A stretch of 64,000 nt of DNA, from assembly GCA_024639515.1 (NCBI GenBank), contig JAHEIG010000001.1:19904-83903 (forward strand), read 5' to 3'. The translations under genes and the position numbers were made by a program. The first letter of the stretch is position 1. Every line of letters starts with the position of its first letter. Below the pieces are notes generated by a model that worked only from the letters and a program-made list of their open reading frames with translations, searched no databases and had not been told where the DNA came from. This DNA comes from Rhodobiaceae bacterium. GTDB taxonomy: Bacteria > Pseudomonadota > Alphaproteobacteria > RS24. Positions 3,314-54,385 of this stretch are shown here, in pieces.

Positions 3314-4165
3314 ATGTTATCCGTTGTTGTTACCGGCGCATCATCCGGTATTGGTCGCCAAATTTCGCAGACACTTGTGGCCAATGGCTATCGGGTGTTT
3401 GGCTCTGTGCGCAAAGCCAGTGATGGCGAGGCGGTTGCCGCCGATTTGGGCGGAAACTTCGTGCCTTTGGTGTTTGACGTTACTGACCGCGAGGCTGTTG
3501 ACCGCGCCGCCCAACAAGTCGATGCGGCGCTGCAAGGTAAAACCCTTGCTGGTCTGATTAACAATGCCGGTATTGCGGTGATCGGGGCGATACAAAATCT
3601 GTCGCCGGAGGAGTTCCAAAATCAGTTTGATGTCAATCTGATGGGGGTGTTCCACTGCACGCAAGCGTTTCTCGACCTGCTCGGGGCCGATAGCGGGCGC
3701 GACGGCGCGCCGGGCAAAATCATTAATATCAGCTCGGTTTCGGGTGAGATTGGTATGCCGCTGATGGGTGCTTACAATATGAGTAAATTTGGGCTCGACG
3801 GTTTTTCCGAGGCCCTGCGGCGCGAGCTGATGCTGTTTGGCATTGATGTTGTGGTGCTTGCACCAGGGCCAGTGAAAACCCCGATCTGGGAAAAAATGCC
3901 CGGCGACGAAATGCTGGTCCGCTATGACAACTCAGCCTTTCGCGATGTGCTGGCCCGGATGATGGGCTTCACCGAACAAATGGAGAGCGGTGGTTATGAA
4001 CCAGAGGTCATTGCCGACCGCGCCTTGGCCGTGTTGCGGGCCGCTAAGCCGAAAACCCGCTACACGCTTGACGCCCAGTGGATGCAGAACCGGCTTCTGG
4101 CCCGCCTGCCCAAGCGCATGGCCGACAAAATGATTGCCAAGCAAATGGGGCTACAGAAAAAATAG
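3314..4165 (+). CDS. SDR family oxidoreductase
   Basis: TGASSGIGRQ cofactor motif, NNAG, and the S...YxxxK catalytic pattern (YNMSK). GGGGAG RBS lies before ATG 3314. Confidence 0.85.
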   Translation: MLSVVVTGASSGIGRQISQTLVANGYRVFGSVRKASDGEAVAADLGGNFVPLVFDVTDREAVDRAAQQVDAALQGKTLAGLINNAGIAVIGAIQNLSPEEFQNQFDVNLMGVFHCTQAFLDLLGADSGRDGAPGKIINISSVSGEIGMPLMGAYNMSKFGLDGFSEALRRELMLFGIDVVVLAPGPVKTPIWEKMPGDEMLVRYDNSAFRDVLARMMGFTEQMESGGYEPEVIADRALAVLRAAKPKTRYTLDAQWMQNRLLARLPKRMADKMIAKQMGLQKK

Positions 4166-4273: not shown

Positions 4274-5386
4274 ATGCGCCTGACTTCAACTGATTTCGTT
4301 TTTAACCCTGACGACTTTCGGGACGCCAAATTTATCGACGGCGGTGAGCTGGATAGTGACCAGTTAAACGACGGCGAGGTGATTATTGCCGTCGACCGTC
4401 TGGCCCTGACCGCCAATACCATTTCCTATGGCATCGCTGGCAAGTCCGGCCTTATCCGCTATCTCGAGAGTTTCCCGACTGACGCGCCTTATGCGCGCAT
4501 GCCGTTTTGGGGGTTTGGCGATATTGTCGCCTCGGCCCACCCAGATTTGCCGGTCGGCGAGCGGCTTTACGGCTTCTACCCGTTATCGACCTATCTGCTG
4601 TGCCAAATGGATCATGTGAGCGCGGTGTCTTGTCGCGATATGACGCCGAGCCGAGCCAGCATTCCGGGGTTTTATAGCGACTATGCGCGGGCCACCGCCG
4701 AGCCGGGCTATGCCGCAGAATTTGATGATATTCAAAGCCTGTTGCGGCCTGTCATCAGCACCTCTTTTCTGCTTGAGAGCTATCTGATGGATCATGATTT
4801 TTACAACACGCGCAATATCATCATCACCAGCGCGTCGAGCAAAACCGCTTTTGGCTTTGGCCATTTTCTGCTCAATAAACACAGCGACAAATGCCGCGCC
4901 ATTGGCCTGACATCGGTCAGCAATAAAGCCTTTGTCGAAAAGACCGGCTGTTATCACCAAGTGTTGACCTATGACGAGGTCGACCAATTACCGCTCGAAA
5001 GCGCCACGGTTTTTGATATGGCCGGTAATGCGCAATTGCGCCAAGCCATCCACCAACACCTTGGCGAGCACATCGCCTATAGCGGTATTGTCGGCGCCAC
5101 CCATTGGGATGCCGGTGGCGTCAGCAAAAACCTGCCCGGCCCGCGACCGGTTTTCTGGTCGGGGCCAGACCAAATCGCGCGGCTTGAGAAAAAGCTCGGC
5201 TCGACCCACAACATTCTCAATGAAGTGCAAGGTCAGGTATTGGGTCTGATTCTGGAGAGTGCCAACTGGCTAGAAATATCGCAGTTTCAGGGAGAAGCAG
5301 AAATCACCAGCGCCTATCGCGACATGCTAGACGGCAAAGTCGGGGCTGAGACAGGTGTTATTTTTTGCGCCAAAGGCGTATTTTAA
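4274..5386 (+). CDS. DUF2855-like protein (MDR-fold-like, function unknown), paralog 1
   Basis: 370 aa. Shares FxxTANxxxYGxAG, WGF, VGERxxGYxP, SASSKTAxG, GLTSxxNxxFVExxGCY and THW blocks with ORF 11763-12872. AGGAGA RBS. Confidence 0.6.
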   Translation: MRLTSTDFVFNPDDFRDAKFIDGGELDSDQLNDGEVIIAVDRLALTANTISYGIAGKSGLIRYLESFPTDAPYARMPFWGFGDIVASAHPDLPVGERLYGFYPLSTYLLCQMDHVSAVSCRDMTPSRASIPGFYSDYARATAEPGYAAEFDDIQSLLRPVISTSFLLESYLMDHDFYNTRNIIITSASSKTAFGFGHFLLNKHSDKCRAIGLTSVSNKAFVEKTGCYHQVLTYDEVDQLPLESATVFDMAGNAQLRQAIHQHLGEHIAYSGIVGATHWDAGGVSKNLPGPRPVFWSGPDQIARLEKKLGSTHNILNEVQGQVLGLILESANWLEISQFQGEAEITSAYRDMLDGKVGAETGVIFCAKGVF

Positions 5387-5431
5387 TCCTGCCCCATTGA
5401 AAAACCCGTCGCCATGTCCAATATCTAATAT

Positions 5432-5890
5432 ATGAGCGAAACAACACCAAAAACCGCCTCGCCTTTCAGCATTGATTGGCGCTGCCGCCCAACCTGGCGC
5501 ACCGCCAGCTATAACACCTTATGGTGCCTCATCGGCTGTTCGATTGGCGATATGGGCACCATCCTTTATTTCCAACTGACCGGCATTGCCTGGCCGGTCT
5601 GGGCAATTATGGGGCTGGCGATTATCAACGGCTTGCTGACCTCGATTGCGCTGGAAACCATTTTGCTGGCCCGCCAAATGGCGCTGAAAGCAGCCTTTCA
5701 TACGGCCATTGGCATGTCGCTGATTTCTATGGTGTCGATGGAACTGGCAATGAACATTGTCGATGTGCTGGTCACTGGCGGCGCCCGCCTCACCCTCTGG
5801 GTTTTGCCGCTGATGTCGTTGGCCGGCTTTATCACCCCACTGCCGTATAATTATTGGCGCCTAAAAGCCCTCGGCAAGGCCTGCCACTAG
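5432..5890 (+). CDS. DUF4396-like small integral membrane protein
   Basis: 152 aa, about 4 TM, with a CLIGCSIGDMG motif in the first helix. Family recalled from that motif. No clear RBS. Confidence 0.5.
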   Translation: MSETTPKTASPFSIDWRCRPTWRTASYNTLWCLIGCSIGDMGTILYFQLTGIAWPVWAIMGLAIINGLLTSIALETILLARQMALKAAFHTAIGMSLISMVSMELAMNIVDVLVTGGARLTLWVLPLMSLAGFITPLPYNYWRLKALGKACH

Positions 5891-5956
5891 CATTAACTGT
5901 TTTCTTTTTCCAACAGCTTGTATAGCCTTCTCACACGTAAGAGGGAGTTCAAGTTT

Positions 5957-7204
5957 ATGGAGCAAGTCAATGAGTTTAAGCGCGGTTGGAAGGTTCTATT
6001 CGCTTGTTTTTTGGGTATCGCGGTTAATCTGGCCACACTTCCCTATTATACCAATGGTATTTTCATTCGCTTCTGGCAGGAAGAATTTGGCTGGAGTCGC
6101 GCCGAAATAGGTGCCCAGACAAGTATCGCCGTGATTGTCATGGTGCTCAGTGCACCGCTTGCCGGACGCTTGCTCGACCGCTATGGCATCCGTTTGGTGG
6201 CCTCTATTTCGCTGACGCTTTTCGCGGTGACGCTATATTCAGTGCGCCATGTCGTTGATTCACTGGCCGACCTTTACATCATCTCTATGCTATATGCGCT
6301 TTTAGGTATCGCCTCGACACCGATTGCTTTTACCCGCGCGATTAGCGCGTTTTTCGTCAAACATCGCGGCCTGGCGCTTGGTATCGGCCTTTCTTCAACC
6401 GGCCTGACAGCTTATTTCTCGCAAACCTATCTGACGCCTTATGTCGCCGAACATGGCTGGCGCGCCGGTTATGACATTCTGTTCTGGGTGGTCATGGTGA
6501 CGGTGCCATTCGTCTATTTCTGGACCCGCGATTATCCCGAGGACACGCCAACACAAAACCAAGACAGCGAGACAGCACCCAGTGAGCAGAGAGCGCAAAG
6601 TGCACATAGTGATTATGACCTAACCTTCTCGGAAAGCATCCGCACCGTCACATTCTGGAAACTCGCGACTATTTTCTTTATCCTCGCCGTGGCCATTCTC
6701 GGCATTGTGCCAGCCTATATTCCGCTGCTTCTCGACGCTGGCCTATCGCCCGCCGAGGCCGGTCAAATTGGCGGGGTGATGGGCATTTCGGTATTGGCAG
6801 GACGCCTCATCATCGGCGCCGCTCTGGACCGCGTCTATCCGCCTTATGTGGTCGCCACCGTCTTTACATTGGTCGCCGCCAGCTGCTTGGCATTGGGCAT
6901 GGGGGGTATTGAATATGCCTTGCTCACGGCCATCGCTCTGGGCTTTGCCGTCGGCGCCGAAGTTGACCTTATTGGCTATTTCACGGCGCGCTATTTTGGC
7001 CTGTCCCATTACGGGGCCATTTATGGTCTGCAATACAGCATTTTCATCGGCGGTGCTGGGGTCAGCCCGATTTTGGTCGGCTATAGCTGGGACGTCACCG
7101 GCAATTATGATGTGGCGCTGATTGGCGCCGCGTGCATGCTGATACCGGTGGTGCTGATCAGCTTCACCCTGCCGCGTTTTAACGACGAAATGGCCGCCCA
7201 TTAA
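5957..7204 (+). CDS. MFS transporter
   Basis: About 12 TM segments split by a central hydrophilic loop (PTQNQDSETAPSEQRAQ), plus an MFS-like GRLLDRYG motif. ATG 5957 follows GAGGGAG. TTG 5918 is an alternative start. Confidence 0.75.
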   Translation: MEQVNEFKRGWKVLFACFLGIAVNLATLPYYTNGIFIRFWQEEFGWSRAEIGAQTSIAVIVMVLSAPLAGRLLDRYGIRLVASISLTLFAVTLYSVRHVVDSLADLYIISMLYALLGIASTPIAFTRAISAFFVKHRGLALGIGLSSTGLTAYFSQTYLTPYVAEHGWRAGYDILFWVVMVTVPFVYFWTRDYPEDTPTQNQDSETAPSEQRAQSAHSDYDLTFSESIRTVTFWKLATIFFILAVAILGIVPAYIPLLLDAGLSPAEAGQIGGVMGISVLAGRLIIGAALDRVYPPYVVATVFTLVAASCLALGMGGIEYALLTAIALGFAVGAEVDLIGYFTARYFGLSHYGAIYGLQYSIFIGGAGVSPILVGYSWDVTGNYDVALIGAACMLIPVVLISFTLPRFNDEMAAH

Positions 7205-7324
7205 GCCGCCCATAGGGGTATTCGCAAGGCCTTAAGCCGGCTGATGACGGGGCCGCCAATGCTTGACTTATCGACACCGGGGTGCCAGCATCTTTAGCAA
7301 TCTTGGGAGGATTGTGACAGTCGT

Positions 7325-7368
7325 GTTTTTGACGCGATGGAGGTTGCGTTTTTGGACGCGATAGGAGG
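7325..7368 (+). repeat. Imperfect tandem direct repeat GTTTTTG(G)ACGCGAT(A)GGAGG x2
   Basis: Copy 1 at 7325-7343, copy 2 at 7348-7368, a 23-nt period with one single-base indel in each copy. Copy 2 supplies the RBS of the 7377 ORF. Confidence 0.7.
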
Positions 7369-7376
7369 AGTAAACA

Positions 7377-8276
7377 GTGTTTAAATATAAACCGAAAACA
7401 GTCGATGAAATTGTCATTCGGGATTTTTCCTTTGAATTTCCAGATGACATTGATCCCGTATGGATTCCCAATCAACGTGTGCGCAGTCACATGTTCAACG
7501 GCCTATCTCTGACCATGCCGCATCTTGAGCCATATCTGGTCAAGACAGCCCGCGAGTCAGCCCGTGGCATTGAATGCGAAGAATTGCTGGCCGATATTCG
7601 TGGCTTCTGCGGCCAAGAGAGCCAGCATTATAAATGTCATCGCCGTCTCAATGATGTGCTGACCGCCAATGGCTATCCTGAGTTCGCGAAAGTCGAAGAA
7701 CGCATGGATAAGGCATGGAAAAAACTAATGACCCAAAGCCTCGAAAAGCGGCTCGCCTATTCAGCCGGTTTTGAGTGTATGACCAATGGCTTCACCCTGT
7801 GGCTGATTAAAAAGCGTCTGCAATTATTCAAAAATGCAGATCCGCATATCACCTCTTTCTGGCTGATGCATATGATTGAAGAAACCGAGCACAAAACCGT
7901 TGCGCTCGATTGCTATATGGCCCATTCGGGTCGCTATTGGACGCGCTTCTTGGGCGTGTTCCACGGCTCGTTCCATGTCGTCGGCTGGGGTCTTATCGGC
8001 ATGATGTCGGGCCTTAAACAAGATGGCGTGCTGAAAAAACCAAGCACATGGTTTGAGCTGGCCCGCGAAATGGGGTCGATGATTTATAATGTCGGGCCGT
8101 TTTTGCTCCGCGCCTTAAAGCCCGGCCATGACGCGCGTGACGAGATTGACCCGTCATGGATGCATCAATGGACGGATGGCTACGCCAAAATGCCTGCTGA
8201 ACAGCCTATCCCGCTCCTGGATACAGAACATCCGGACATGCCGGTACCTTTTGAAACCTTACAGGCAGCTGAATAA
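7377..8276 (+). CDS. Predicted metal-dependent hydrolase family (PF10118-like) protein with diiron-like ExxH motifs
   Basis: GTG start 7 nt after AGGAGGAG. N-terminal FSFEFPDDIDPVW pattern. E51...E81-S-Q-H84 and E133...E169-T-E-H172 motifs. Confidence 0.5.
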   Translation: MFKYKPKTVDEIVIRDFSFEFPDDIDPVWIPNQRVRSHMFNGLSLTMPHLEPYLVKTARESARGIECEELLADIRGFCGQESQHYKCHRRLNDVLTANGYPEFAKVEERMDKAWKKLMTQSLEKRLAYSAGFECMTNGFTLWLIKKRLQLFKNADPHITSFWLMHMIEETEHKTVALDCYMAHSGRYWTRFLGVFHGSFHVVGWGLIGMMSGLKQDGVLKKPSTWFELAREMGSMIYNVGPFLLRALKPGHDARDEIDPSWMHQWTDGYAKMPAEQPIPLLDTEHPDMPVPFETLQAAE

Positions 8277-43617: not shown

Positions 43618-44589
43618 ATGAAAACCGAAAACCCAGAAAACAAAAAACCAGGCCGTGGCCGCATCTACACATCAATCACCCAAACCATTGGTGACACGCC
43701 GATTGTCCGGCTGGATAATCTGATGAAAGAATATGGCGTACGCAGCACATTGCTGGCCAAGCTGGAATTCTTTAACCCGATTGCCAGCGTCAAAGACCGT
43801 ATCGGCGTGGCCATGGTCGAAGCCTTGGAAGCGGAAGGCAAGCTGAACACCAACACCGTGCTGGTCGAGCCGACATCGGGCAATACCGGTATCGCGCTGG
43901 CTTTTGCCTGCGCTGCTAAAGGCTACCGGCTGATTTTGTGCATGCCAGTGAGCATGTCGATGGAACGGCGCAAAATGCTGTTGCTGCTCGGCGCTGAATT
44001 GGAGTTGACCCCAGCCGACCAAGGCATGAAGGGCGCCATTGGACGGGCCGAAGAATTGCTCGCCGAAAACCCAGACTGGGTGATGCCGCAGCAATTTAAC
44101 AATCCGGCCAACCCGCAAATCCACCGCGAGACAACGGCTGAAGAAATCTGGAACGACACAGATGGCGAAGTCGACGCGATTATTTCTGGCGTCGGCACAG
44201 GCGGCACCTTTACCGGTCTCGGCAGTGTGCTGAAAGCCCGTAAGCCAGAGCTGAAAATGATTGCTGTCGAGCCTGAAGACAGCCCGATTCTGTCGGGTGG
44301 TGCGCCTGGCCCGCATAAAATCCAAGGCATTGGCGCCGGTTTTATTCCCGGCAATATGGAACAAAATCTGGTCGACGAAGTGGTCACTATTGGCAATGAA
44401 ACAGCCTTTGAAACGGCGCGGCTTCTGGCCCGCCTCGAAGGTGTGCCGGGTGGCATCAGCTCAGGCGCGGCGATTGCCGCAGCGCTTGAAGTAAGCCGCC
44501 GCGAGGAAATGGCCAGAAAAAATATTGTGATTATTCTGCCGAGCTTCTCTGAGCGTTATTTGTCGACCGCTTTGTTTGAAGGTCTATAG
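43618..44589 (+). CDS. cysK: Cysteine synthase A (O-acetylserine sulfhydrylase)
   Basis: [17 protein letters not shown] (PLP lysine), [10 protein letters not shown] and GVGTGGT motifs. Confidence 0.92.
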
Positions 44590-44606
44590 GCCAGCGGGTC
44601 TGCTGC

Positions 44607-45374
44607 ATGTCATTAAGCGATGACCAGATAGAGCGCTACCAACGCCACATCCTGCTGAAGGAAATTGGCGGCGCCGGACAACAGAAACTGGCGCAAGCTC
44701 GGGTTCTGCTGGTCGGCATGGGCGGCTTGGGCAATCCGGCGGCGCAATATCTCGCCGCCGCCGGTGTCGGCACGCTGGGGCTGGCCGATGACGATGTGGT
44801 GAGCCTGTCTAATCTGCAACGCCAAACCTTGTTCGGCACAGACGACATCGACCAACCGAAAGTGGCGGTTGCGGCGCGGGCCTTGCTCAACATCAACCCG
44901 CATATCGCGCTCAACACCCACGCCTACCGCGTCACGGCTGACAATATTGACGGCTTATTGGCGGACTATGATGTAGTGGTTGATGGCAGCGATAATTTCG
45001 CCTCGCGTTTTTTGCTCAATGACCATTGCTTCGCCCAGCGCAAAACGCTGATTAGCGGCGCGGTGGGCCGGTTTGACGGGCAAGTGACCTGTTTTAAGCC
45101 ATGGCTGACAGATGCCGACGGCACCCCCTTGCCGTGTTATCGATCCTTGGTGCCGGAAGCCCCTGAGATAGAAGAAGATTGCGCCACCACCGGTATTATC
45201 GGTGCGCTGACCGGGGTGATTGGCAGTCTCATGGCGGTGGAAGTGATTAAAGAAATCACCGGCGCTGGGGACAGTCTGGCCGGTCGGCTGCTGATCTATG
45301 ATGGCCTGAGGGCAAGCATGCGGACGGTGAAACTCAACTGGGATCCGCGCAACCCGAATAATGGCCGGGCTTAA
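44607..45374 (+). CDS. moeB: HesA/MoeB/ThiF family adenylyltransferase (MoeB-like)
   Basis: RYQRHILLKEIGGAGQQKL, GMGGLGNPAAQYLAAAGVG, NLQRQ and PCYRSL...C motifs. Confidence 0.8.
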   Translation: MSLSDDQIERYQRHILLKEIGGAGQQKLAQARVLLVGMGGLGNPAAQYLAAAGVGTLGLADDDVVSLSNLQRQTLFGTDDIDQPKVAVAARALLNINPHIALNTHAYRVTADNIDGLLADYDVVVDGSDNFASRFLLNDHCFAQRKTLISGAVGRFDGQVTCFKPWLTDADGTPLPCYRSLVPEAPEIEEDCATTGIIGALTGVIGSLMAVEVIKEITGAGDSLAGRLLIYDGLRASMRTVKLNWDPRNPNNGRA

Positions 45375-46366
45375 TCAAGCGCCGCGCTGGGCAAGACGCG
45401 ATCCGGCGGGCGGTGCCCATCAGCCCATGAGCGAATATTGATAATCACCTTCTCACCCATGCCCTGACGCCCCTCCATAGTGGCGGACGACATATGCGGC
45501 AGCAAAATCACATTATCAAAATCACGCAAACGCGGATTGAAAGCCGGTTCGCGCTCAAACACATCAAGCGCCGCGCCGCCAAGTTTTCCAGCGGCTAATT
45601 GGTCGGCCAGCGCGTCTTCATCAATCACTTCGCCGCGACTGGTATTGACGACAATGGCGTGCGGTTGCAGCAAAGCCAGGCGGCGGGCTGACAGCAAATG
45701 ATAAGTCGCCGGTGTGTGCGGGCAGTTCAGCGAGACAATATCCATACTGCGCAACATGCGGTCGAGATTGTCGATATAGGTGGCGTCAACCGAGGCCTCA
45801 ATGTCAGCGTGGAGGCGACTGCGGTTATGGTAGAAAACCTCTACGCCAAATGCGCGTGCGCGCCGCGCCACGGCTTGGCCAATCCGCCCCATGCCAATAA
45901 TGCCGAGCTTCTTGCCGGCCAGACGTCGCCCCAACATCCAGTTCGGCGACCAGCCGGTAAACGCCCCTTCTTGGCGCATAATCCGGTCGCCCTCAACCAA
46001 GCGGCGGGGCAGGGCCAAAATTAGCGCCATGATCATATCGGCGGTGTCATCGGTCAGCACAGAGGGTGTATTGGTGACAATAATGCCGCGCTCATGCGCC
46101 GCGTCGATGTCGATATTATCCGTGCCATTGCCGAAATTGGCGATCAGTTTCAACTGCGCGCCAGCCCCTTCAATCAGGCGTCGGTCAATGCGGTCGGTAA
46201 TGGTTGGCACCAGCACGTCATTATTGGCCATCATCGCCGCCAGACCCTCAGCCGCGAGCGCGCGGTCGTGCTCGTTCCACGTCACATCGAAAAGCTCAGA
46301 CATGCGCAATTCAATTTCGCTGGGCAAGCGCCGTGTCACAGCTACGCGGGTTTGGTTATGGGCCAT
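45371..46366 (-). CDS. D-isomer-specific 2-hydroxyacid dehydrogenase (glyoxylate/hydroxypyruvate reductase-like)
   Basis: GIIGMGRIGQAVARRA NAD motif, and RG..ID/H catalytic residues (TSRGEVIDEDAL, LPHMSS). Start taken at ATG 46366. Its stop overlaps the moeB stop (TTAA). Confidence 0.85.
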   Translation of the reverse strand: MAHNQTRVAVTRRLPSEIELRMSELFDVTWNEHDRALAAEGLAAMMANNDVLVPTITDRIDRRLIEGAGAQLKLIANFGNGTDNIDIDAAHERGIIVTNTPSVLTDDTADMIMALILALPRRLVEGDRIMRQEGAFTGWSPNWMLGRRLAGKKLGIIGMGRIGQAVARRARAFGVEVFYHNRSRLHADIEASVDATYIDNLDRMLRSMDIVSLNCPHTPATYHLLSARRLALLQPHAIVVNTSRGEVIDEDALADQLAAGKLGGAALDVFEREPAFNPRLRDFDNVILLPHMSSATMEGRQGMGEKVIINIRSWADGHRPPDRVLPSAALD

Positions 46367-46460
46367 AAGCATCCTTTGATTAGCTTTCAATCTATCAGAT
46401 TGGCGGCCAATTCTCTAGCTTGGACTTGCTGAGGGCGGCGCAAATTTGTATCAAAGAAGC

Positions 46461-47012
46461 ATGAGTGTTTTTATCCGCGCCTGTTTATGTGCTGTCGTGT
46501 TGCTGGGCCTTGGTGGGTTAATCGCCGAGCCACCAAGCCGCGCCGCCAGTGCCACACCAGATCAACTGGCCGACACCCGCCAACGCGGCAAAAGTGGGCT
46601 ATTGCTGCCGCGCTTTGTCTCGATCAATCAAAACCTCGCCAATGTGCGCCGTGGCCCGGGCAAAGAATACCCACTGCTGTGGCAATATCAGCGCAGTGGC
46701 ATCCCGCTGGAAATCATTGCCGAATATGGCGACTGGCGCCACATCCGCGATTATGACGGCAGCGAGGGCTGGATGCACAAACGCCTCTTGCGCGGGCCGC
46801 GTATGGTCAAACTGCGCGGCACCGACACCAGCCTCGCCCTGCGCAGTCAAGCAAAGCCCGAGGCCGGCGTGTTAGCCCGCGTGCAGGCTGGCAGTTTTGC
46901 CCGCCTCGACGCATGTCAGATTGGCTGGTGCCGACTGCAGATTGGTCAGCATACAGGTTGGATGCGCCGCCCCGATATTTGGGGGGTCTATGATTTTGAG
47001 TTTAACCAGTAA
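46461..47012 (+). CDS. SH3-like domain protein (COG3807/DUF1058-like), secreted
   Basis: Signal peptide, then two SH3b-like segments (ANVRRGPGKEYPLLWQYQRSGIPLEIIAEYGDWRHIRDYDGSEGWMH). Confidence 0.6.
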   Translation: MSVFIRACLCAVVLLGLGGLIAEPPSRAASATPDQLADTRQRGKSGLLLPRFVSINQNLANVRRGPGKEYPLLWQYQRSGIPLEIIAEYGDWRHIRDYDGSEGWMHKRLLRGPRMVKLRGTDTSLALRSQAKPEAGVLARVQAGSFARLDACQIGWCRLQIGQHTGWMRRPDIWGVYDFEFNQ

Positions 47013-47019
47013 GCCGCGC

Positions 47020-47613
47020 TTAGGCGTCGAAATCAGCAGATAGAGAGGCTTTGCTCTCGGCCGTCAGTACCGTCATATGCGCATAATTCTCATGCTCAAA
47101 GCCCAACACGATTTGCGTATCCGGCGCACCGAATTTAGCAATCAGCTCGGCTGGGAATGGGAAATGCAGAAAATGTACAGATGAGGTTTTGCCGTCCGGC
47201 GCGGTGCGTTCGACTTCCTGCTCTGGCTTGGCGAATACTTTGTCATCGCCAAGCTGCACGTAAGCCGTTAGTTCGACATCGGTCAGCTGGCGCAGAACCT
47301 GCCCGCGACGCACTTCATCGTTGATTTCAAACATCAGCGTGGCGGTCAGTTCTTGGCCTTGCGGGATCATTGGGTTATAGGCTTGCAGCTCGTCTTCGAC
47401 CTGCTCGTCGCCGCCTTTTTCGATATACAGCATTTCAAGAACCTGCTGTTTCATCGTCGCATAGTTTTCGAAATAGAACGTCGCATCGGGGCCAACGGCG
47501 ATCCGGCGCGGCTTTTTCAAGGCGACATTGGCACGGCGCAATTCATCACGCACGGCGGCATATTCGTCGAGCGACATCAAGTCATTTTTGGTCAGGGTTT
47601 TGGGAGTTGTCAT
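47020..47613 (-). CDS. DUF3501 family protein
   Basis: 197 aa. The pattern (FYFENYATMKQQVLEMLYIEK, AYNPMIPQG.ELTATLMFE, SSVHFLHF) matches my recollection of DUF3501. Last gene of the rubrerythrin operon. Confidence 0.6.
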   Translation of the reverse strand: MTTPKTLTKNDLMSLDEYAAVRDELRRANVALKKPRRIAVGPDATFYFENYATMKQQVLEMLYIEKGGDEQVEDELQAYNPMIPQGQELTATLMFEINDEVRRGQVLRQLTDVELTAYVQLGDDKVFAKPEQEVERTAPDGKTSSVHFLHFPFPAELIAKFGAPDTQIVLGFEHENYAHMTVLTAESKASLSADFDA

Positions 47614-47639
47614 TAATTTTTTCCTAGAACAAATTGGGT

Positions 47640-48998
47640 CTAAACAAGTTGATAGGCGCGTGCGAAGACCTCAATCGGGTGCTTCGCTTCCGGAGGGGTG
47701 TTCTCGTTAATATCTTCGACCAGCTGGACCAGATGTTTGGCCGCCAGCGGGCAGTCTGAGCACACTGTGTCAGGCTCGCTTTTGGCCACCGTGCGGGCCG
47801 CCGGCTTGCCGACTTTTACCGCCAGCGGGCGGGTTTCTTTCATCACCCCAAACGTGCCGCCATGGCCCGAGCAACGCTCAACCACAGAAACTTTAGCTTC
47901 AGGGATGAGGCGCAGTAGTTCAGCCGATTTCGGGCCGACATTTTGCGCCCGCGCGTGGCACGCCAAATGCATGGCGATGTTTTCAGTGCCGCTATCAAGG
48001 GCGGCGAGACCGTCGGTCAGACCTTCCTTATTGGCGATGCTGACGACATATTCAGAGATGTCACGGGTCGCCGCACTCAACGCTTTGACGTCTTCATTGT
48101 CTGGCACAATCAGCGGCCATTCGAATTTGAACATCAGGCCACAGCTGGCGGTGAGGGCGATAATATCTTTGCCAGCAATGACCAGTGGACGCAGCGCGGC
48201 GGCGACTTTCTCAGCCTGCTCGGCGACCTTGGCCAGATTGCCCTGCTCGAGAAACGGCATACCGCAACAGCCAGGATATTCGGTGGTCACGTCGACGCCG
48301 AGATGGGCCAACACTTTGGCCGCGGCTTCGCCGACTTGCGGGTTGTTATAATTCACCGCACATGTGGCGAATAACACCGCTTCGCGGCCCTTGGCCGGGC
48401 CGTTTGGATTGGCTGTGTACTCGCCGCGCGAAACCGCTTCGGCGGCCCGCTTGACGAAGGTCTTACCGGCAAATTTCGGCAGCTCGGCCTGCCGGTCGAT
48501 ACCAGCAACGGCTTCCAAAGCCGGTCGCGTCAGCGCATTGCCTTTTTTCGAGCCCCAATTGGCCAGCGGCGCAACAGGTGCCAAGGCGGTGCCATTGCGA
48601 TCCATTTGGGCCAGTTGGTTTTGAACGAATGGCACTTTGCCTGTTTCCTTCAATTCGACGGCGCGGTAGCGCAGCATCAAATGCGGAAAATCGAGATTAA
48701 ATTCATGTGGCGGCACATAAGGGCATTTGGTCATGAAGCACATGTCACACATGGTGCAGGCGTCAATGATCGGAGAGAAATCTTTGCTGTCGACCGTGTC
48801 TAATTCGCCGCTTTCGCTATCGTCGATGAGATCAAACAAGCGCGGGAAGCTGTCGCACAGATTGAAGCAACGGCGGCAGCCGTGGCAAATGTCAAATTGA
48901 CGACGGAGCTCGTCATCCAGCGCGGCGCGGTCGTAAAATTCTTCGCTGTGCCAGTCAAGCGGGTGGCGCGTCGGCGCGTCGATACTGCCTTCTCTCAT
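47640..48998 (-). CDS. Heterodisulfide-reductase-D-like (GlpC/GlcF-like) Fe-S protein with CCG domains
   Basis: Two ferredoxin-type motifs (CHGCRRCFNLCDSFP and CTMCDMCFMTKCPYVPP), a CCG motif (EYPGCCGMP) and a second Cys-rich domain (CHARAQ...ERCSGHGG). ATG 48998 follows GGAGAG. Confidence 0.8.
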   Translation of the reverse strand: MREGSIDAPTRHPLDWHSEEFYDRAALDDELRRQFDICHGCRRCFNLCDSFPRLFDLIDDSESGELDTVDSKDFSPIIDACTMCDMCFMTKCPYVPPHEFNLDFPHLMLRYRAVELKETGKVPFVQNQLAQMDRNGTALAPVAPLANWGSKKGNALTRPALEAVAGIDRQAELPKFAGKTFVKRAAEAVSRGEYTANPNGPAKGREAVLFATCAVNYNNPQVGEAAAKVLAHLGVDVTTEYPGCCGMPFLEQGNLAKVAEQAEKVAAALRPLVIAGKDIIALTASCGLMFKFEWPLIVPDNEDVKALSAATRDISEYVVSIANKEGLTDGLAALDSGTENIAMHLACHARAQNVGPKSAELLRLIPEAKVSVVERCSGHGGTFGVMKETRPLAVKVGKPAARTVAKSEPDTVCSDCPLAAKHLVQLVEDINENTPPEAKHPIEVFARAYQLV

Positions 48999-49079
48999 CA
49001 AAACTCTCCAAACTAGATGATAAAGATATTTCCGACGCGCCGCAGACAAGGCCGCGACACGCCGGAAAAATCAAATGAC

Positions 49080-49496
49080 TTATTCCATTGAATCCAGAGC
49101 TTTCTGGAAACGACCTGCGTGAGACTTTTCAGCCTTGGCAAGGGTTTCGAACCAGTCAGCAATTTCATCAAAGCCTTCTTCGCGGGCGGTACGCGCCATA
49201 CCCGGATACATATCCGTGTATTCGTGTGTTTCGCCTGCGATGGCGGCTTTCAGGTTTTCATCGGTTGAACCAATTGGCTCACCAGTCGCTGGATCACCAA
49301 CTTCTTCCATGAATTCCAAATGGCCGTGCGCGTGGCCGGTTTCGCCTTCCGCTGTTGAGCGGAATACGGTGGCAACATCGTTGTAGCCTTCAATATCGGC
49401 TTTTTGCGCGAAATACAGGTAACGACGATTGGCTTGGCTTTCACCAGCAAAGGCCGCCTTCAGGTTTTCAATGGTTTTTGAGTCTGCGAGTGACAT
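49080..49496 (-). CDS. Rubrerythrin-family diiron protein without a rubredoxin domain
   Basis: 138 aa. [25 protein letters not shown] and AEKSHAGRF give the E / ExxH x2 diiron pattern. No CxxC pairs. GGGAGAGG RBS before ATG 49496. Confidence 0.85.
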
Positions 49497-49581
49497 AAGA
49501 CCTCTCCCAAATTGAGTGTTAAAAGACAGCCAAGAACCGCTTGGTTCTGGGCTCACCGGAAAGGTTTTTCCGACTGAAATT

Positions 49582-49611
49582 AAAATAGGTCGGCCCCTAG
49601 GGCGTGTCAAG
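49582..49611 (-). promoter_or_regulatory. Promoter candidate for the rubrerythrin operon
   Basis: On the minus strand: CTTGAC, an 18-nt spacer, TATTTT. About 85 nt upstream of ATG 49496 and 4 nt downstream of the ICE palindrome. Confidence 0.45.
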
Positions 49612-49615
49612 GTTT

Positions 49616-49632
49616 CTTAGAATAATTCTAAA
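49616..49632. promoter_or_regulatory. Iron control element (Irr box)
   Basis: CTTAGAATAATTCTAAA matches the ICE consensus TTTAGAA-N3-TTCTAAA at 16 of 17 positions. Lies between the irr stop and the rubrerythrin promoter. Confidence 0.6.
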
Positions 49633-49637
49633 ATAAA

Positions 49638-50066
49638 CTATTTATTGCTGAGGCGGATGACGATTTGGATGCCGTCTGTCTGGTAGCCGGATGGCGGCTT
49701 GGGCAAATCGCCCATGACAATCTCGTCTTGATCAATGTCAATCAAGCGGGCTTCGCTCTCGACATAGAAATGATGATGTTCTTCCAGATTAGTGTCAAAA
49801 TAACTCCGCCCTTGGTCGATAATGACCTCATGCAGCAGACCAGCTTTATGGAATTGATTGAGCGTGTTGTAAATCGTCGCCTGCGACACCCGCAAACCAG
49901 AACGAGACGCCTCGTCAAACAAGATTTCGGCGGTAATGTGGCGGTTGCCGGCACCAAATAGCAGATGCGCCAACAGAATGCGCTGCTTGGTGGTGCGCAG
50001 ACCTGCAGAGCGCAGTTTCTCACTGAGATTAGCTTTAACTTGGCTGGAAAGGGACAGAGGCGCCAT
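49638..50066 (-). CDS. irr: Iron response regulator Irr (Fur family)
   Basis: Strong resemblance to rhizobial Irr: AGLR.T.QR, ITAE, ATIYNTLNQF, YFDTN and the HHH motif (EEHHHFYVE). Divergent from fabA, as in many alphaproteobacteria. Confidence 0.85.
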   Translation of the reverse strand: MAPLSLSSQVKANLSEKLRSAGLRTTKQRILLAHLLFGAGNRHITAEILFDEASRSGLRVSQATIYNTLNQFHKAGLLHEVIIDQGRSYFDTNLEEHHHFYVESEARLIDIDQDEIVMGDLPKPPSGYQTDGIQIVIRLSNK

Positions 50067-50086
50067 GAAACACACGTTATTTGAAA

Positions 50087-50103
50087 GTTAAAATCATTCT
50101 AGA
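50087..50103. promoter_or_regulatory. Weaker ICE-like site in the irr-fabA divergent spacer
   Basis: GTTAAAATCATTCTAGA matches the ICE consensus at 14 of 17 positions. 21 nt upstream of the irr ATG. Confidence 0.35.
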
Positions 50104-50204
50104 AAATAAATATTCCCTGCCGCGCTGTCAAGTGTCGAATATGCTTGGGCTGCCTTGGGCACCATGTTAGTTTCGAGACTTATTAAATAGGGAAGTTAAA
50201 ACTC

Positions 50205-50717
50205 ATGTCCGGCCAAAATTCATATAATTATGACGAACTCATCGCCTGTGCCAATGGCGAACTTTTTGGCGAGGGCAATGCCCGCCTGCCAGCACCACCA
50301 ATGCTGATGTTCGACCGGATTACGCAAATTAATAGTGATGGCGGCAATTACGGCAAAGGCGCGATTGTTGCCGAGCTGGATGTGAAGCCTGATCTGTGGT
50401 TTTTCGAGTGTCACTTCCGCGAAGATCCGGTGATGCCCGGTTGCCTCGGCCTCGATGCGATGTGGCAGCTCATTGGGTTTTATCTCGGTTGGGCAGATAA
50501 CCCAGGCCGTGGCCGCGCGCTGGGCTCCGGCAAGGTGAAGTTTACCGGCCAAGTGATGCCAGATGTGAAACTGGTGCGCTATGAAATTGACATTAAGCGC
50601 ATGATGACCGGTCGTCTGGTTATGGGCATTGGCAACGCCCGCCTATTCGCAGATGATGAACTCATCTACACAGCAGAAGATTTGCGGGTCGGCCTGTTCC
50701 GTCCCGAACAAATGTAA
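50205..50717 (+). CDS. fabA: 3-hydroxydecanoyl-ACP dehydratase/isomerase
   Basis: 170 aa. [37 protein letters not shown]. Confidence 0.95.
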
Positions 50718-50736
50718 TCAACACCAAGGATATAAA

Positions 50737-51948
50737 ATGCGGCGCGTAGCAATTACCGGAATTGGAATTATTTCCAGCATTGGCAATAATGCCGACGAAG
50801 TAGCGGCAAGCCTGAAGGCTGGCCGTTCGGGTATCACAAAAGCCGAAAAGCATATTGAGTTGGGGTTCCGCAGCCAAGTTGCCGGACAACCGAGCTTCGA
50901 CATTGACGCCAATATCGACAAGCGCAACCGCCGCTTTATGGGCGATGGCGCGGCGTGGAATTTCGCCGCCATGGAACAAGCGATTGCCGATGCCGGTCTC
51001 GAAACCGACGATATTTCAAACCCGATGACCGGCCTGATTATGGGCTCGGGTGGACCGTCGACCAAAGCTCTGATTACCGCAGCCGATACGGCGCGCAATG
51101 CCAGCCCAAAACGGGTCGGGCCTTTTGCCGTGCCCAAATGCATGTCGTCAACCAATTCGGCGACACTGGCCACACCGTTCCAGATTAAGGGCATTAACTA
51201 TTCCATCTCATCGGCTTGTGCGACTTCTAATCACTGCATCGGCAATGCCGCTGAAATGATTCAATGGGGCAAGCAGGATGTGATGTTCGCCGGTGGTGGC
51301 GAAGAGCTGGACTGGGCCTTGTCGGTTCTGTTTGATGCCATGAGCGCTATGTCGAGCAAATATAATGACACGCCGGGCAGCGCCAGCCGCGCCTATGACG
51401 CCAATCGCGATGGCTTTGTGATTGCCGGTGGCGCCGGTGTTCTGGTGCTTGAAGAAATGGAACGGGCGAAAAAACGCGGCGCCAAAATCTATGCCGAAAT
51501 TACCGGCTATGGCGCCACCTCAGACGGCCACGATATGGTGCAGCCATCTGGCGAAGGGGCTATTCGTTGCATGCAAATGGCGATGAAAGACCTCGACTGC
51601 CCGATTGACTATATCAACCCGCACGCCACCTCGACTCCGATTGGCGACATTAAAGAAATCGAAGCGCTGCGGACATTGTTCGGCGCCGATTGCCCGCCAA
51701 TTAGCGCGACCAAATCATTGACCGGTCACTCGCTGGGCGCGGCCGGTGTGCAGGAGGCGATCTATTCGCTGCTGATGATGCGCGATAATTTCATCGCCGC
51801 CTCAGCCCATATCGAAACGCTTGACCCAGACTTCGCCGATATGCCGATTGTCCAACAGCGCCGCGATGATGTGAATTTAAACTGCGTGATGTCCAATGGC
51901 TTCGGCTTTGGCGGCACCAATGGCACATTGGTGATGAAAAAAGTTTAA
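50737..51948 (+). CDS. fabB: Beta-ketoacyl-ACP synthase I
   Basis: [18 protein letters not shown], active-site SSACATS, and the [14 protein letters not shown] motifs. AAGGA RBS before ATG 50737. The track ORF start at 50629 lies inside fabA. Confidence 0.93.
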
Positions 51949-51970
51949 GCCGCTTTTTCAAAACCTAAGC

Positions 51971-52016
51971 AAATAAAAACCGCCGCATGGATCTCCCACG
52001 CGGCGGTTTATTTTTG
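51971..52016. terminator. Bidirectional intrinsic terminator between the convergent fabB and pnp genes
   Basis: AAACCGCCGC (51977-51986), a 13-nt loop, GCGGCGGTTT (52000-52009). A perfect 10-bp stem flanked by AAATAAAA and ATTTTTG. Confidence 0.75.
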
Positions 52017-52037
52017 TCAGCTTAAAGACCCGACGAC

Positions 52038-54164
52038 TTAGTCGTCAGAGTCTTTTTTCGCTTCAAGGTCTTCACCAGTTTCTTGATCGACCACTTTCAT
52101 CGACAAGCGAACCTTACCGCGATCGTCAAAGCCCATCAGCTTCACTTTCACTGTGTCGCCTTCTTTCACAACATCGGTTGTGTTTTCGACGCGCTTATCA
52201 GCCAGTTGCGAAATATGCACCAAACCGTCGCGCTTACCGAAGAAGTTGACGAAAGCGCCAAAGTCCATGGTTTTCACAACAGTGCCTTCATAAATCACAC
52301 CAACTTCTGGCTCGGCAACGATTGAATTAATCCAATCCAGTGCCGCGCGGATGGCTTCGCCATCTGATGATGCCACTTTAATCAGGCCGGTGTCACCAAT
52401 ATCAATTTTGGCGCCAGTTGTTTCAACAATCTCACGAATGACCTTGCCGCCGGTACCGATAACCTCACGGATTTTATCCTGAGGTACCTGAATGGTTTCG
52501 ATTTTCGGTGCGTACTCGCCCATTTCTTCGCGGGCTTCGGTGAGAGATTTAGCCATTTCACCAAGAATGTGGACACGGCCACCTTTGGCTTGGTCAAGCG
52601 CGACCTGCATAATCTCTTCGGTGATGCCGGTGATTTTAATGTCCATTTGCAGCGAGGTAATACCATCGGCCGTACCAGCTACTTTAAAGTCCATGTCACC
52701 AAGGTGATCTTCGTCGCCGAGAATATCTGACAAGACAGCGAAACGATCGCCTTCTTTGATCAGACCCATGGCAATACCTGCAACTGGTTTTTTCAGCGGC
52801 ACACCGGCATCCATCATCGCCAAAGAAGAACCGCAAACGGTCGCCATAGACGACGAGCCGTTCGACTCGGTGATTTCAGAAACCAGACGCAATGTGTAAG
52901 GGAACTCGTCCTTGCTTGGCAGCATCGCTTTCAGCGAACGCCATGCCAATTTACCGTGACCAATTTCGCGGCGACCGGTAAAGCCTACACGACCCGTCTC
53001 ACCAACAGAGTATGGCGGGAAGTTGTAATGCAGCATGAAGTTTTCGCGATATGTGCCTTCCAGCGCATCGACGAATTGCTCATCATCGCCTGTGCCCAAA
53101 GTGGCCACGACGAGGGCTTGCGTTTCACCACGAGTAAACAGGGCAGAACCATGTGTCCGTGGCAGCACGCCAGCTTCAGCAACAATCTGGCGCACATCGG
53201 CCAGACCACGACCATCAATACGTTTTGAGGTATCGAGGATACCGCCACGCACAATGTCGCTTTCAACTGATTTGAAAGCACTTGAAACAGCGGTGCGCTC
53301 ATCAGGGGATGCGTCTTCAGCAACCAATTCAGCGTTCACCGTGTCGCGCAATTCAGCGATTGCTGATTGGCGGCTTTGTTTGTCGGCTTGTTGGTAAGCC
53401 GCTTCGAGACCAGAGCTGGCCAGACCAGAAACTTTTGCTTTCAGTTCTGAATCATCTGTTTGCGGCACTTCGCGTGGCTCTTTGGCAGCTTTTTCTGCCA
53501 TCCGCACGCATGCGTCAATCACTGGCTGGAAGCCTTTGTGACCGTGCATCACGGCGCCAAGCATGACATCTTCTGACAATTCATTGGCTTCTGATTCAAC
53601 CATCAGAACCGCGTCAGACGTACCAGCCACCACAAGGTCAAGCTCGCTGTCTTCCATTTGGTCCAAGGTTGGGTTGAGCACATATTCGCCGTCAATAAAG
53701 CCGACGCGGGCGCCACCAATTGGGCCTTGGAAAGGAATGCCTGAAATTGTCAGGGCGGCAGAAACCGCAACCATGGCAACAACATCTGCATCATTTTCCA
53801 AGTCATGGCTGATGACGGTGGCAATCACTTGCGTTTCGTTTTTGAAACCTTTGACAAAAAGCGGACGAATTGGGCGGTCAATCAAACGAGAGACCAGTGT
53901 CTCTTTTTCGCTTGGGCGTCCTTCGCGCTTAAAATAGCCGCCGGGTACTTTACCCGCCGCATAAGCTTTTTCCTGGTAGTTCACCGTCAGTGGGAAAAAG
54001 TCGAGGCCCGGTTTCGGGCTGCGGTCGGCAACAACGGTTGCCAGAACACTTGTTTCGCCATAGGTCGCCAGAACGGCACCATCGGCTTGGCGTGCAATAC
54101 GCCCTGTTTCCAATACGAGCGGACGTCCGCCCCAATCAATTTCTTCTCGTGTAATATTAAACAT
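52038..54164 (-). CDS. pnp: Polyribonucleotide nucleotidyltransferase (PNPase)
   Basis: Two RNase PH domains plus KH and S1 domains. Start taken at ATG 54164 ([16 protein letters not shown]). Confidence 0.97.
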
Positions 54165-54385
54165 ACGTTTTCCTATCAAAGCGGGGGGCGATACGTTTCC
54201 TTGCCTTACCCGCCAAGCCATAACAGCCCTATTGCTGTCTCATGGCCGTGTCGAGAACCTGTCGAAAGACCAAGCCGGTTCTCAGTCGTTTTAGTGTCAT
54301 CTCGCCATCGCCCCATGCGACAGCAAAACATATCTGGCTTGTCGATATGTTGGCACTGGCCCCACACAGTGAGGCCAGCCCAAAA

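Follow-up and report, generated by a model that had tools for sequence, protein, structure and literature searches.

A Rhodobiaceae copy of the aerobic-type rubrerythrin system, with its irr linkage and Irr-box promoter compared across Alphaproteobacteria

Rubrerythrins that lack a rubredoxin domain were defined as an "aerobic-type" lineage by Cardenas, Quatrini & Holmes (2016; PMC5114695), who found that genes of this lineage co-localise and co-occur with genes for DUF3501 and for a COG0247/CCG iron-sulphur (Fe-S) protein named RFO. In that survey all three genes were present in 185 of 4461 genomes and the rubrerythrin (RBR) plus DUF3501 alone in 25, DUF3501-RFO fusions were seen in Nitrosomonas, and RFO was proposed to compensate for the lost rubredoxin domain (PMC5114695). 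Mitochondrion-targeted versions of all three proteins were later described in Andalucia and other protists, with an alphaproteobacterial origin inferred (Gray et al. 2020; PMC7050145), and a 2025 preprint on the Burkholderia pseudomallei rubrerythrin (BpRbr) restates the electron-partner hypothesis, with no biochemistry for the partners. Control of rubrerythrin by Irr through the iron control element (ICE, or Irr box) was predicted in Pelagibacter, Rhodospirillum and Magnetospirillum (Rodionov et al. 2006; PMC1698941). Here we analyse a locus of a Rhodobiaceae bacterium in which the three genes follow irr, using 64,000 nucleotides (64 kb) of contig JAHEIG010000001.1, the whole of which we call the window. 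The locus is an ordinary copy of the published aerobic-type RBR/RFO/DUF3501 system.

The three genes lie directly downstream of irr on the minus strand, with 81 nt between rbr and the RFO gene and 26 nt between the RFO and DUF3501 genes, and the coordinates agree with the close spacing given in an initial annotation of this DNA. Protein families were assigned with Pfam and NCBIfam cut-offs, and folds were compared through AlphaFold2 models and Foldseek searches of PDB. The genes are:

50066..49638, minus strand: irr, 142 aa; NCBIfam IrrA at 180.9 bits (cut-off 150), and Pfam FUR
49496..49080, minus strand: rbr, 138 aa; PF02915 (Rubrerythrin), residues 10-133, as the only Pfam match
48998..47640, minus strand: the gene for RFO (CCG Fe-S protein), 452 aa; PF02754 twice
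47613..47020, minus strand: the DUF3501 gene, 197 aa; PF12007, E 4.6e-55

The conserved starts of rbr, RFO and DUF3501 are the ATG codons at 49496, 48998 and 47613, and the longer TTG-start open reading frames of the mechanical list would span the promoter and the hairpin described below. What defines the aerobic-type system is found here: a rubrerythrin of about 140 aa that consists of the diiron domain only and belongs to the BpRbr/sulerythrin clade, a co-localised CCG Fe-S oxidoreductase of the COG0247 type, and a co-localised DUF3501 protein (PF12007) encoded just after RFO.

For comparison, a scan with the DUF3501 profile, using one genome per species, gave 586 relatives, the best 80 of which (L001-L080) were examined; nearly all of these 80 are Alphaproteobacteria, and the closest among them are Rhodobiaceae, PS1-clade and Parvibaculales metagenome-assembled genomes (MAGs), which places the source of the window among the uncultured marine members of this group. 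Gene order was counted in the 71 loci with enough sequence. There, rbr, RFO and DUF3501 are colinear in 70, and irr stands directly upstream of rbr on the same strand in 67, the four loci without an adjacent irr being those of a Sphingomonadales MAG, a Hyphomicrobiales MAG and two Methylocystis genomes. The trio is thus conserved and co-localised as a module centred on a rubrerythrin that lacks rubredoxin, and the co-conservation that the initial annotation had proposed as a check holds. Together with irr it forms a four-gene cassette that is near-universal across the Alphaproteobacteria compared. The window proteins are matched at a median identity of 89% for RBR, 59% for RFO, 55% for DUF3501 and 50% for Irr. 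In the single non-colinear informative locus (L040, 3777-7573), RBR and DUF3501 are present, RFO is represented by a fragment of only 129 residues and the spacing is wider; this break may reflect pseudogene formation, an insertion or faulty assembly.

Within the 138 residues of RBR, PF02915 leaves no room for a rubredoxin domain, which bears out the earlier view of this protein. Candidate diiron ligands in the four-helix bundle are E19, E52, H55, E89, E92, E123 and H126, and comparison with known structures gave E 4e-69 for the B. pseudomallei rubrerythrin (4DI0/9ONM; residues 3-137) and E 3.5e-52 for sulerythrin (1J30). A classical rubrerythrin is ruled out, as the Cys-free chain stops at residue 138; the RuberyRbr model gives 135.5 bits, short of its cut-off of 200, and is matched only over model positions 3-145 of 194. 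Identity as MbfA was also rejected, with 20.6 bits on the FeExpMbfA model (cut-off 450) and no membrane domain. The same score undercuts the parallel that had been drawn with a classic rubrerythrin-like ICE target of Bradyrhizobium, because that target is blr7895, an MbfA homologue; R. sphaeroides MbfA shows good homology to blr7895 (PMC3413700). RBR identity is 82-96% over 73 loci, across alphaproteobacterial orders, and the protein is still very close to the Burkholderia rubrerythrin, while RFO, DUF3501 and Irr diverge to 50-60%. The constraint on the 138-aa RBR is thus unusually strong.

Homologues of RBR make its role as the catalytic diiron hydroperoxide reductase of the system a well-founded assumption. 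Ferriperoxin is an NADPH/FNR-dependent hydroperoxide reductase that is essential for aerobic growth, sulerythrin has peroxidase activity (as cited in the 2025 B. pseudomallei preprint), and rubrerythrin expression has been reported to rise under oxic or UV stress. It would be very improbable, in our judgement, that RBR mainly handles iron, as a ferroxidase or in detoxification, co-regulated with iron storage and with RFO and DUF3501 loading or releasing the metal. Such a role would suit the typical Irr-repressed targets, which are bfr and mbfA (PMC3413700, PMC1698941), the lack of ferritin in SAR11, whose rbr was labelled a hypothetical ferroxidase by the SAR11 authors, and the promiscuous metal binding of BpRbr (2025 preprint). 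However, a domain-swapped dimer of 138-aa chains offers no storage cavity, the enzymology of the homologues consists of peroxidase activity with an aerobic-growth phenotype, and expression tracks oxidative conditions.

RFO has 15 Cys residues that are invariant in 75 sequences. Eight of them make up two ferredoxin-type motifs, C38/41/44/48 (C-x2-C-x2-C-x3-C) and C81/84/87/92 (C-x2-C-x2-C-x4-C-P), so the two 4Fe-4S motifs and the CCG domains (PF02754 twice) noted previously are both present, with the Pfam Fer4 families remaining below threshold. The Cys residues of the CCG domains are C213, C244, C245 and C286 in domain 1 and C347, C376 and C416 in domain 2. When aligned to HdrB by profile, RFO keeps 7 of the 10 cluster-ligand Cys of the CCG signature: the first Cys of CxxC is missing from domain 1, and in domain 2 CCG reads CSG and only one Cys of CxxC is left. 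RFO therefore has a CCG fold without the full HdrB-type signature. An HdrD/HdrB-type protein, with two complete signatures (C-Xn-CC-Xn-C-X2-C, 10 Cys), was rejected on the same count, and neither HdrE (cytochrome b) nor HdrA/HdrC is encoded alongside, the neighbours being irr, rbr, the DUF3501 gene, an SH3 gene and fabA.

The best family match of RFO is GlpC at 193.6 bits (cut-off 278), followed by LdhH, TfrB (64 bits) and GlcF. Identity as GlpC itself was rejected, the score being below the NCBIfam equivalog cut-off and glpAB not being nearby; a further NCBIfam equivalog scored 110.6 against a cut-off of 279.9, and RFO falls below every NCBIfam equivalog cut-off. A sequence search of PDB with RFO returned no match at E<=0.01, and profile search alone reached HdrB, at E 1e-3. 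The AlphaFold2 model has an overall predicted local distance difference test (pLDDT) score of 71, with the N-terminal cluster region below 50, and hence unreliable, and only the CCG half confident. This CCG half resembles LutA (template modelling (TM) score 0.81), HdrB (0.60-0.66) and EtfD of M. smegmatis.

We suggest that RFO is the dedicated electron-input module of RBR, replacing the lost rubredoxin domain, and that electrons would enter at a site built from the two degenerate CCG domains and travel by way of two cubane [4Fe-4S] clusters to the diiron centre. CCG proteins of aerobes, such as GlpC, GlcF, LutA, SdhE and EtfD, connect to the quinone pool. Because GlpC is nearest to RFO, because the aerobic CCG proteins are quinone-linked and because the HdrB signature is incomplete, we give a membrane quinol a slight edge over a thiol as electron donor; by analogy, the quinol would be the leading candidate, at somewhat below an even chance, with a thiol on the one hand and another donor such as ferredoxin on the other each a lesser possibility. 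Ferredoxin or FNR enters as the third option through the FNR/NADPH result for ferriperoxin.

The thiol donor belongs to the mechanism put forward in the initial annotation, in which RFO oxidises a thiol at an HdrB/TfrB-type CCG site and feeds RBR, with DUF3501 as a carrier. The two CCG domains and their fold similarity to HdrB speak for it, TfrB, which oxidises a thiol and passes the electrons to an acceptor, is among the family matches, and the direction is thermodynamically easy. We nevertheless regard this mechanism as possible but rather unlikely: with 7 of 10 cluster Cys, CSG for CCG and one Cys for CxxC in domain 2, and a GlpC match far better than that to TfrB, an Hdr-type thiol/disulphide site is a weak proposal for RFO, and the carrier assigned to it lacks conserved Cys (see below). 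To our knowledge, the Sulfolobales lack glutathione. RFO occurs in them (PMC5114695), so that no single small thiol would serve as universal donor.

The DUF3501 protein of the window contains no Cys, and among 80 sequences no alignment column exceeds 17.5% Cys; without conserved Cys it is no thiol or disulphide carrier. Of the "adaptor or carrier" role once assigned to it, the carrier part therefore falls, and the adaptor part fits the published RFO fusions and the RBR-DUF3501 pairs. Glu, Tyr, Arg and Lys make up most of its conserved residues, together with H174-x2-Y177, and they include no cofactor motif that could be recognised. The AlphaFold2 model (pLDDT 91) has a sole Foldseek match in PDB at E <= 0.001, 3fjv ("uncharacterized novel protein"), which is the structure of its own family, and as 3fjv is itself uncharacterised the fold search gave no functional lead. 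We propose that DUF3501 may be a cofactor-less, Cys-free structural adaptor or assembly factor that docks RBR to its reductase and would not itself carry electrons.

The DUF3501 family comprises 3111 clusters at 50% identity, and a DUF3501-RFO fusion did not appear among the best 150 matches of a representative-library search. Five high-ranking matches of the alphaproteobacterial DUF3501 profile, 260-309 aa long (P0257, P0263, P0281, P0298 and P0333), have N-terminal extensions of about 50-115 residues, which are rich in Arg, Ser and Leu and have few acidic residues, like mitochondrial presequences; these extensions agree with the mitochondrial versions reported from protists.

The spacer between irr and rbr contains the following elements:

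49632..49616, no strand assigned: ICE (Irr box), TTTAGAATTATTCTAAG, with 1 mismatch to the consensus, 5 nt upstream of the -35 hexamer
49610..49582, minus strand: predicted sigma-70 promoter of rbr, TTGACA-17-TATTTT, from a scan, with an implied 5' untranslated region (UTR) of about 79 nt

Scored against the consensus TTTAGAA-N3-TTCTAAA, the window ICE is the 16/17 match that had been seen before the trio; no other site in the 64 kb comes within 1 mismatch of the consensus, and no such site arose in 100 shuffles. The promoter written earlier as CTTGAC-18-TATTTT is the scanned one displaced by one base. Over 1.01 Mb of related loci, each of the 32 ICE matches with <=1 mismatch stands before rbr, and those with 2 mismatches are found before rbr in 22 cases, before irr in 4 and elsewhere in 5. 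An ICE with <=2 mismatches precedes rbr in 54 of 70 loci. When the irr-rbr spacers of 12 relatives are aligned, invariance is confined to two blocks, the ICE and the -35 hexamer. As in known members of the Irr/ICE regulon, then, an ICE (TTTRGAAYNRTTCYAAA) is present in the promoter and kept in orthologous promoters. Moreover, where an ICE is found at <=3 mismatches, TTGAC begins 1-6 nt downstream in 59 of 64 loci, and exactly 3 nt downstream in 40, a composite ICE-N3-TTGAC promoter that is also present in the SAR11-lineage loci L066 and L077.

In the two Methylocystis genomes (L068 and L075), where irr is not adjacent, an ICE-like sequence TTTTGAATTATTCTAAT with 2 mismatches stands 65 nt before the rbr start codon, with no adjacent TTGAC, which suggests that an Irr from another locus acts in trans here, with another promoter geometry. 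A riboswitch or structured leader in the rbr 5' UTR was considered and rejected, as the sequence of this region is not conserved, and an Rfam scan of 46800..50400 gave no match at E<=1, so that the 5' UTR and the rbr-RFO hairpin fit no described RNA family.

The window Irr has no Cys and carries HHH at residues 97-99, which is the haem-binding HxH motif and is present in about 88% of 64 orthologues. Irr of a type that loses DNA binding upon binding haem has been described, and the window protein, with HHH and without Cys, fits this type on its sequence features. It also scores on PerR models. Haem-bound Irr produces reactive oxygen species that destroy Irr itself (PMC4700492), so a PerR-like peroxide input to the window Irr is conceivable by analogy. 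A well-founded element of the proposed mechanism is that Irr, as a haem-sensing Fur-family protein with HxH, has a near-perfect operator abutting the -35 hexamer.

Assuming standard sigma-70 geometry, the ICE spans about -57..-41, with its centre at about -47 to -49. We lean towards repression of the rbr promoter by Irr, with a slight preference: at low haem or iron, apo-Irr at this position would most likely occlude the -35/UP region, a block that haem, possibly together with oxidative inactivation of Irr, would lift. The -35 hexamer is near consensus and hence requires no activator, and the gap between ICE and -35, which ranges from 3 to 6 nt, is easier to reconcile with steric occlusion than with an activator that makes a fixed contact. 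For repression, the footprint of a Fur-family protein on -57..-41 would extend to the -35/UP region. At ccpA of R. sphaeroides, which has an Irr box about 40 nt before the mapped 5' end, loss of irr causes about 2-fold derepression under iron limitation.

Activation is the reverse possibility, in which apo-Irr just upstream of -35 recruits RNA polymerase when haem or iron is scarce, and a haem-independent peroxidase thus stands in for haem-dependent catalase or cytochrome c peroxidase. Irr acts as activator or repressor according to ICE position, and direct activation is common; an ICE centred directly before -35, as in 59 of 64 loci, is activator-like. Minimal Irr regulons, furthermore, hold either a di-haem peroxidase or an aerobic-type rubrerythrin (PMC1698941), and in SAR11 both rbr mRNA and the DUF3501 protein increase under iron limitation (figures below). 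We nonetheless consider this direction of control rather unlikely, given that TTGAC in 59 of 64 loci makes an activator unnecessary, that the ICE-to-(-35) spacing is not fixed, that the ccpA site of similar geometry is repressed, that a unit of RFO and RBR with at least 14 Fe atoms would be costly under iron starvation, and that the SAR11 effects are small and the proteome was shrinking meanwhile.

A broader version of the same idea would make irr-ICE-rbr-RFO-DUF3501 the ancestral core of the Irr regulon, with Irr activating a haem-independent, quinol- or thiol-fed peroxide reductase at haem scarcity; we offer it as a speculation that is less probable still. If it were true, ICE-N3-TTGAC would be a dedicated activation architecture, and the peroxide reductase would replace catalase and cytochrome c peroxidase. 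The same enzyme system survives in some protist mitochondria.

The other distinctive element of the cassette is a hairpin between rbr and RFO:

49068..49029, minus strand: terminator-like stem-loop from a scan, 17 bp with 10 G-C pairs and the tail TATCTTTATC

The minimum free energy of the rbr-RFO spacer is -32.4 kcal/mol (z = -3.8). A strong hairpin, most with z of -2 to -7, occurs a few to a few tens of nt past the rbr stop in nearly all related loci (about 70); its position is conserved and its sequence is not, and a T-run follows it in low-GC genomes. The gaps between RFO and DUF3501 are short across the related loci. With such a hairpin inside it, the trio would be one transcription unit only by read-through. 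The single operon of the initial annotation is thus upheld as to colinear genes behind a promoter, but the terminator-like hairpin makes rbr plus read-through the probable arrangement. Its likely function is partial termination or 3' stabilisation, which would leave RBR in excess over RFO and DUF3501.

Taken together, the explanation that we favour, with moderate confidence, is an aerobic-type peroxide-defence system packaged with Irr, in which irr, the ICE and promoter, rbr, the hairpin, RFO and DUF3501 would act as one four-gene cassette. Several points weigh against it. No experiment on RFO or DUF3501 has been reported in any organism, and to that extent the earlier statement that the trio lacked biochemical characterisation stands. 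Ferriperoxin needs nothing beyond FNR and NADPH for its activity in vitro, so the system may not strictly require RFO, and Thermoproteales have RBR and DUF3501 without RFO (PMC5114695). Quinol coupling is argued by analogy only, as RFO lacks a membrane segment and the neighbouring genes encode no quinone-binding partner. On the regulatory side, the transcription start of rbr is a predicted one, and the ICE lies upstream of the -35 hexamer, the usual place for an activator, Irr being often an activator. Under iron limitation of Ca. Pelagibacter ubique, rbr mRNA rose 1.57-fold (P = 0.025) and the DUF3501 protein SAR11_0401 rose 2.21-fold (P = 0.003); with the same cassette and ICE geometry, these increases, which are small and were measured against a shrinking global proteome, are opposite to simple repression. 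The ICE position and the SAR11 response also leave the claim that the system is made only when iron is sufficient unproven.

The irr gene has promoter elements of its own:

50103..50131, minus strand: predicted sigma-70 promoter of irr, TTGACA-17-TATTTT, from a promoter scan
50087..50103, no strand assigned: weak ICE-like site with 3 mismatches, beginning at the final base of the irr -10 hexamer

ICE-like sites with <=3 mismatches precede irr in 18 of 68 loci, against 1 of 68 in an equal-length coding-region control, which suggests that irr may be autoregulated.

Around the cassette, fabA and fabB run from 50205 on the plus strand, an SH3 gene occupies 46446..47012 and a MoeB/ThiF-like open reading frame 44607..45374. 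The synteny of window positions 43618-54221 reaches SAR11, where irr is likewise preceded by divergent fabA-fabB and the cassette is followed by a convergent SH3_4-domain gene, with a moeB/thiF-like gene close by. The stop codons of the convergent SH3 and DUF3501 genes, at 47012 and 47020, are 7 nt apart, which leaves no space for a terminator.

The entire cassette is also found in Arhodomonas sp. SL1 (L053; NZ_JBPODZ010000007.1, 4593-7576), which is labelled a gammaproteobacterium, with an Irr homologue of 42% identity and an ICE with 2 mismatches before rbr. As Irr and ICE have been reported as confined to Alphaproteobacteria, this suggests the joint horizontal transfer of regulator, operator and operon. 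Several MAGs labelled Flavobacteriaceae, Mesoflavibacter or Cybelea (L023, L043 and L026) carry the cassette as well, and these may be mis-binned.

Much of this picture was already in the literature: the trio since 2016 and 2020, the Irr box since 2006, and the electron-partner hypothesis of the initial annotation likewise in print. The new observations are incremental. They are the near-universal four-gene cassette with irr across Alphaproteobacteria and the composite ICE-N3-TTGAC promoter, the conserved hairpin after rbr, the 7-of-10 CCG Cys pattern in RFO, and the Cys-free DUF3501. They concern a widespread module, which occurs in SAR11 and other abundant marine Alphaproteobacteria, in Burkholderia and in protist mitochondria. 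The aerobic-type system may be a major cytoplasmic peroxide defence in genome-streamlined cells, and the conserved Irr operator ties haem and iron sensing to peroxide defence. The value of the present locus is that of a clean, compact example for experiments, not that of a discovery, and nothing in it is specific to the window.

Among known systems, the PerR/Fur-rbr operons of anaerobes (e.g. Desulfovibrio) likewise place the gene of a Fur-family regulator beside a rubrerythrin gene, and the 2025 B. pseudomallei preprint notes a Fur/Zur regulator beside rbr; however, their rubrerythrins are classical, with the rubredoxin domain, and the regulator senses peroxide by metal-catalysed oxidation instead of haem. 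In Bradyrhizobium japonicum, blr7895 (MbfA) is likewise under Irr/ICE control and its product has a ferritin-like (erythrin) diiron domain, MbfA being a membrane iron exporter with an erythrin and a VIT1 domain. The blr7895 ICE overlaps the transcription start, whereas that of the window lies upstream of the -35 hexamer. The position of the blr7895 element is consistent with repression (PMC3413700).

The CCG proteins GlpC, GlcF, LutA/LutB, HdrB/HdrD, TfrB and EtfD combine a 2x[4Fe-4S] ferredoxin-like region with two CCG domains, as RFO does. Unlike them, RFO has no flavoprotein, HdrE/cytochrome b or GlpAB partner nearby, its partner being a diiron protein. Ferriperoxin (Hydrogenobacter thermophilus), sulerythrin (Sulfolobus tokodaii) and BpRbr belong to the same clade as the window RBR, all with a domain-swapped diiron bundle and none with a rubredoxin domain. 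The first two are demonstrated peroxidases, and ferriperoxin is reduced in vitro by FNR and NADPH, its RFO gene being unlinked.

The trio occurs in the same order on a Burkholderia cenocepacia chromid (L081, 1676-6588, annotated by hand), where an extracytoplasmic function (ECF) sigma factor gene and a YCII gene stand upstream instead of irr, and no ICE was found at this trio. Only Burkholderia chromids were matched in a tblastn search of plasmids. Since the Burkholderia trio has neither irr nor ICE, the Irr linkage is an alphaproteobacterial addition. The ECF-type sigma factor of this chromid has Sigma70_r2/r4 and DUF6596 domains, and about nine GACGCAC heptamer repeats lie at about 3830-3890, between the sigma gene and rbr.

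In Ca. Pelagibacter ubique HTCC1062 the genes run in the order fabB, fabA, the Fur-family gene SAR11_0398, rbr (0399), "glpC" (0400), the hypothetical genes 0401 and 0402, and moeB (0403; Smith et al. 2010, supplement). The synteny of SAR11_0396-0403 is identical to that of the window, down to the divergent fabA-fabB and the nearby moeB, and its Irr box was predicted in 2006; the differences are an identity of only about 53-87% to the window, the annotation of the genes as GlpC and hypothetical, and the mild increase under iron limitation. With the system of Cardenas et al. and Gray et al., finally, the window shares the same three families in the same order, rbr-RFO-DUF3501, around a rubredoxin-less RBR. 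Nothing essential differs, except that the alphaproteobacterial copies, including that of the window, add the upstream irr and the ICE, which the 2016 description does not discuss.

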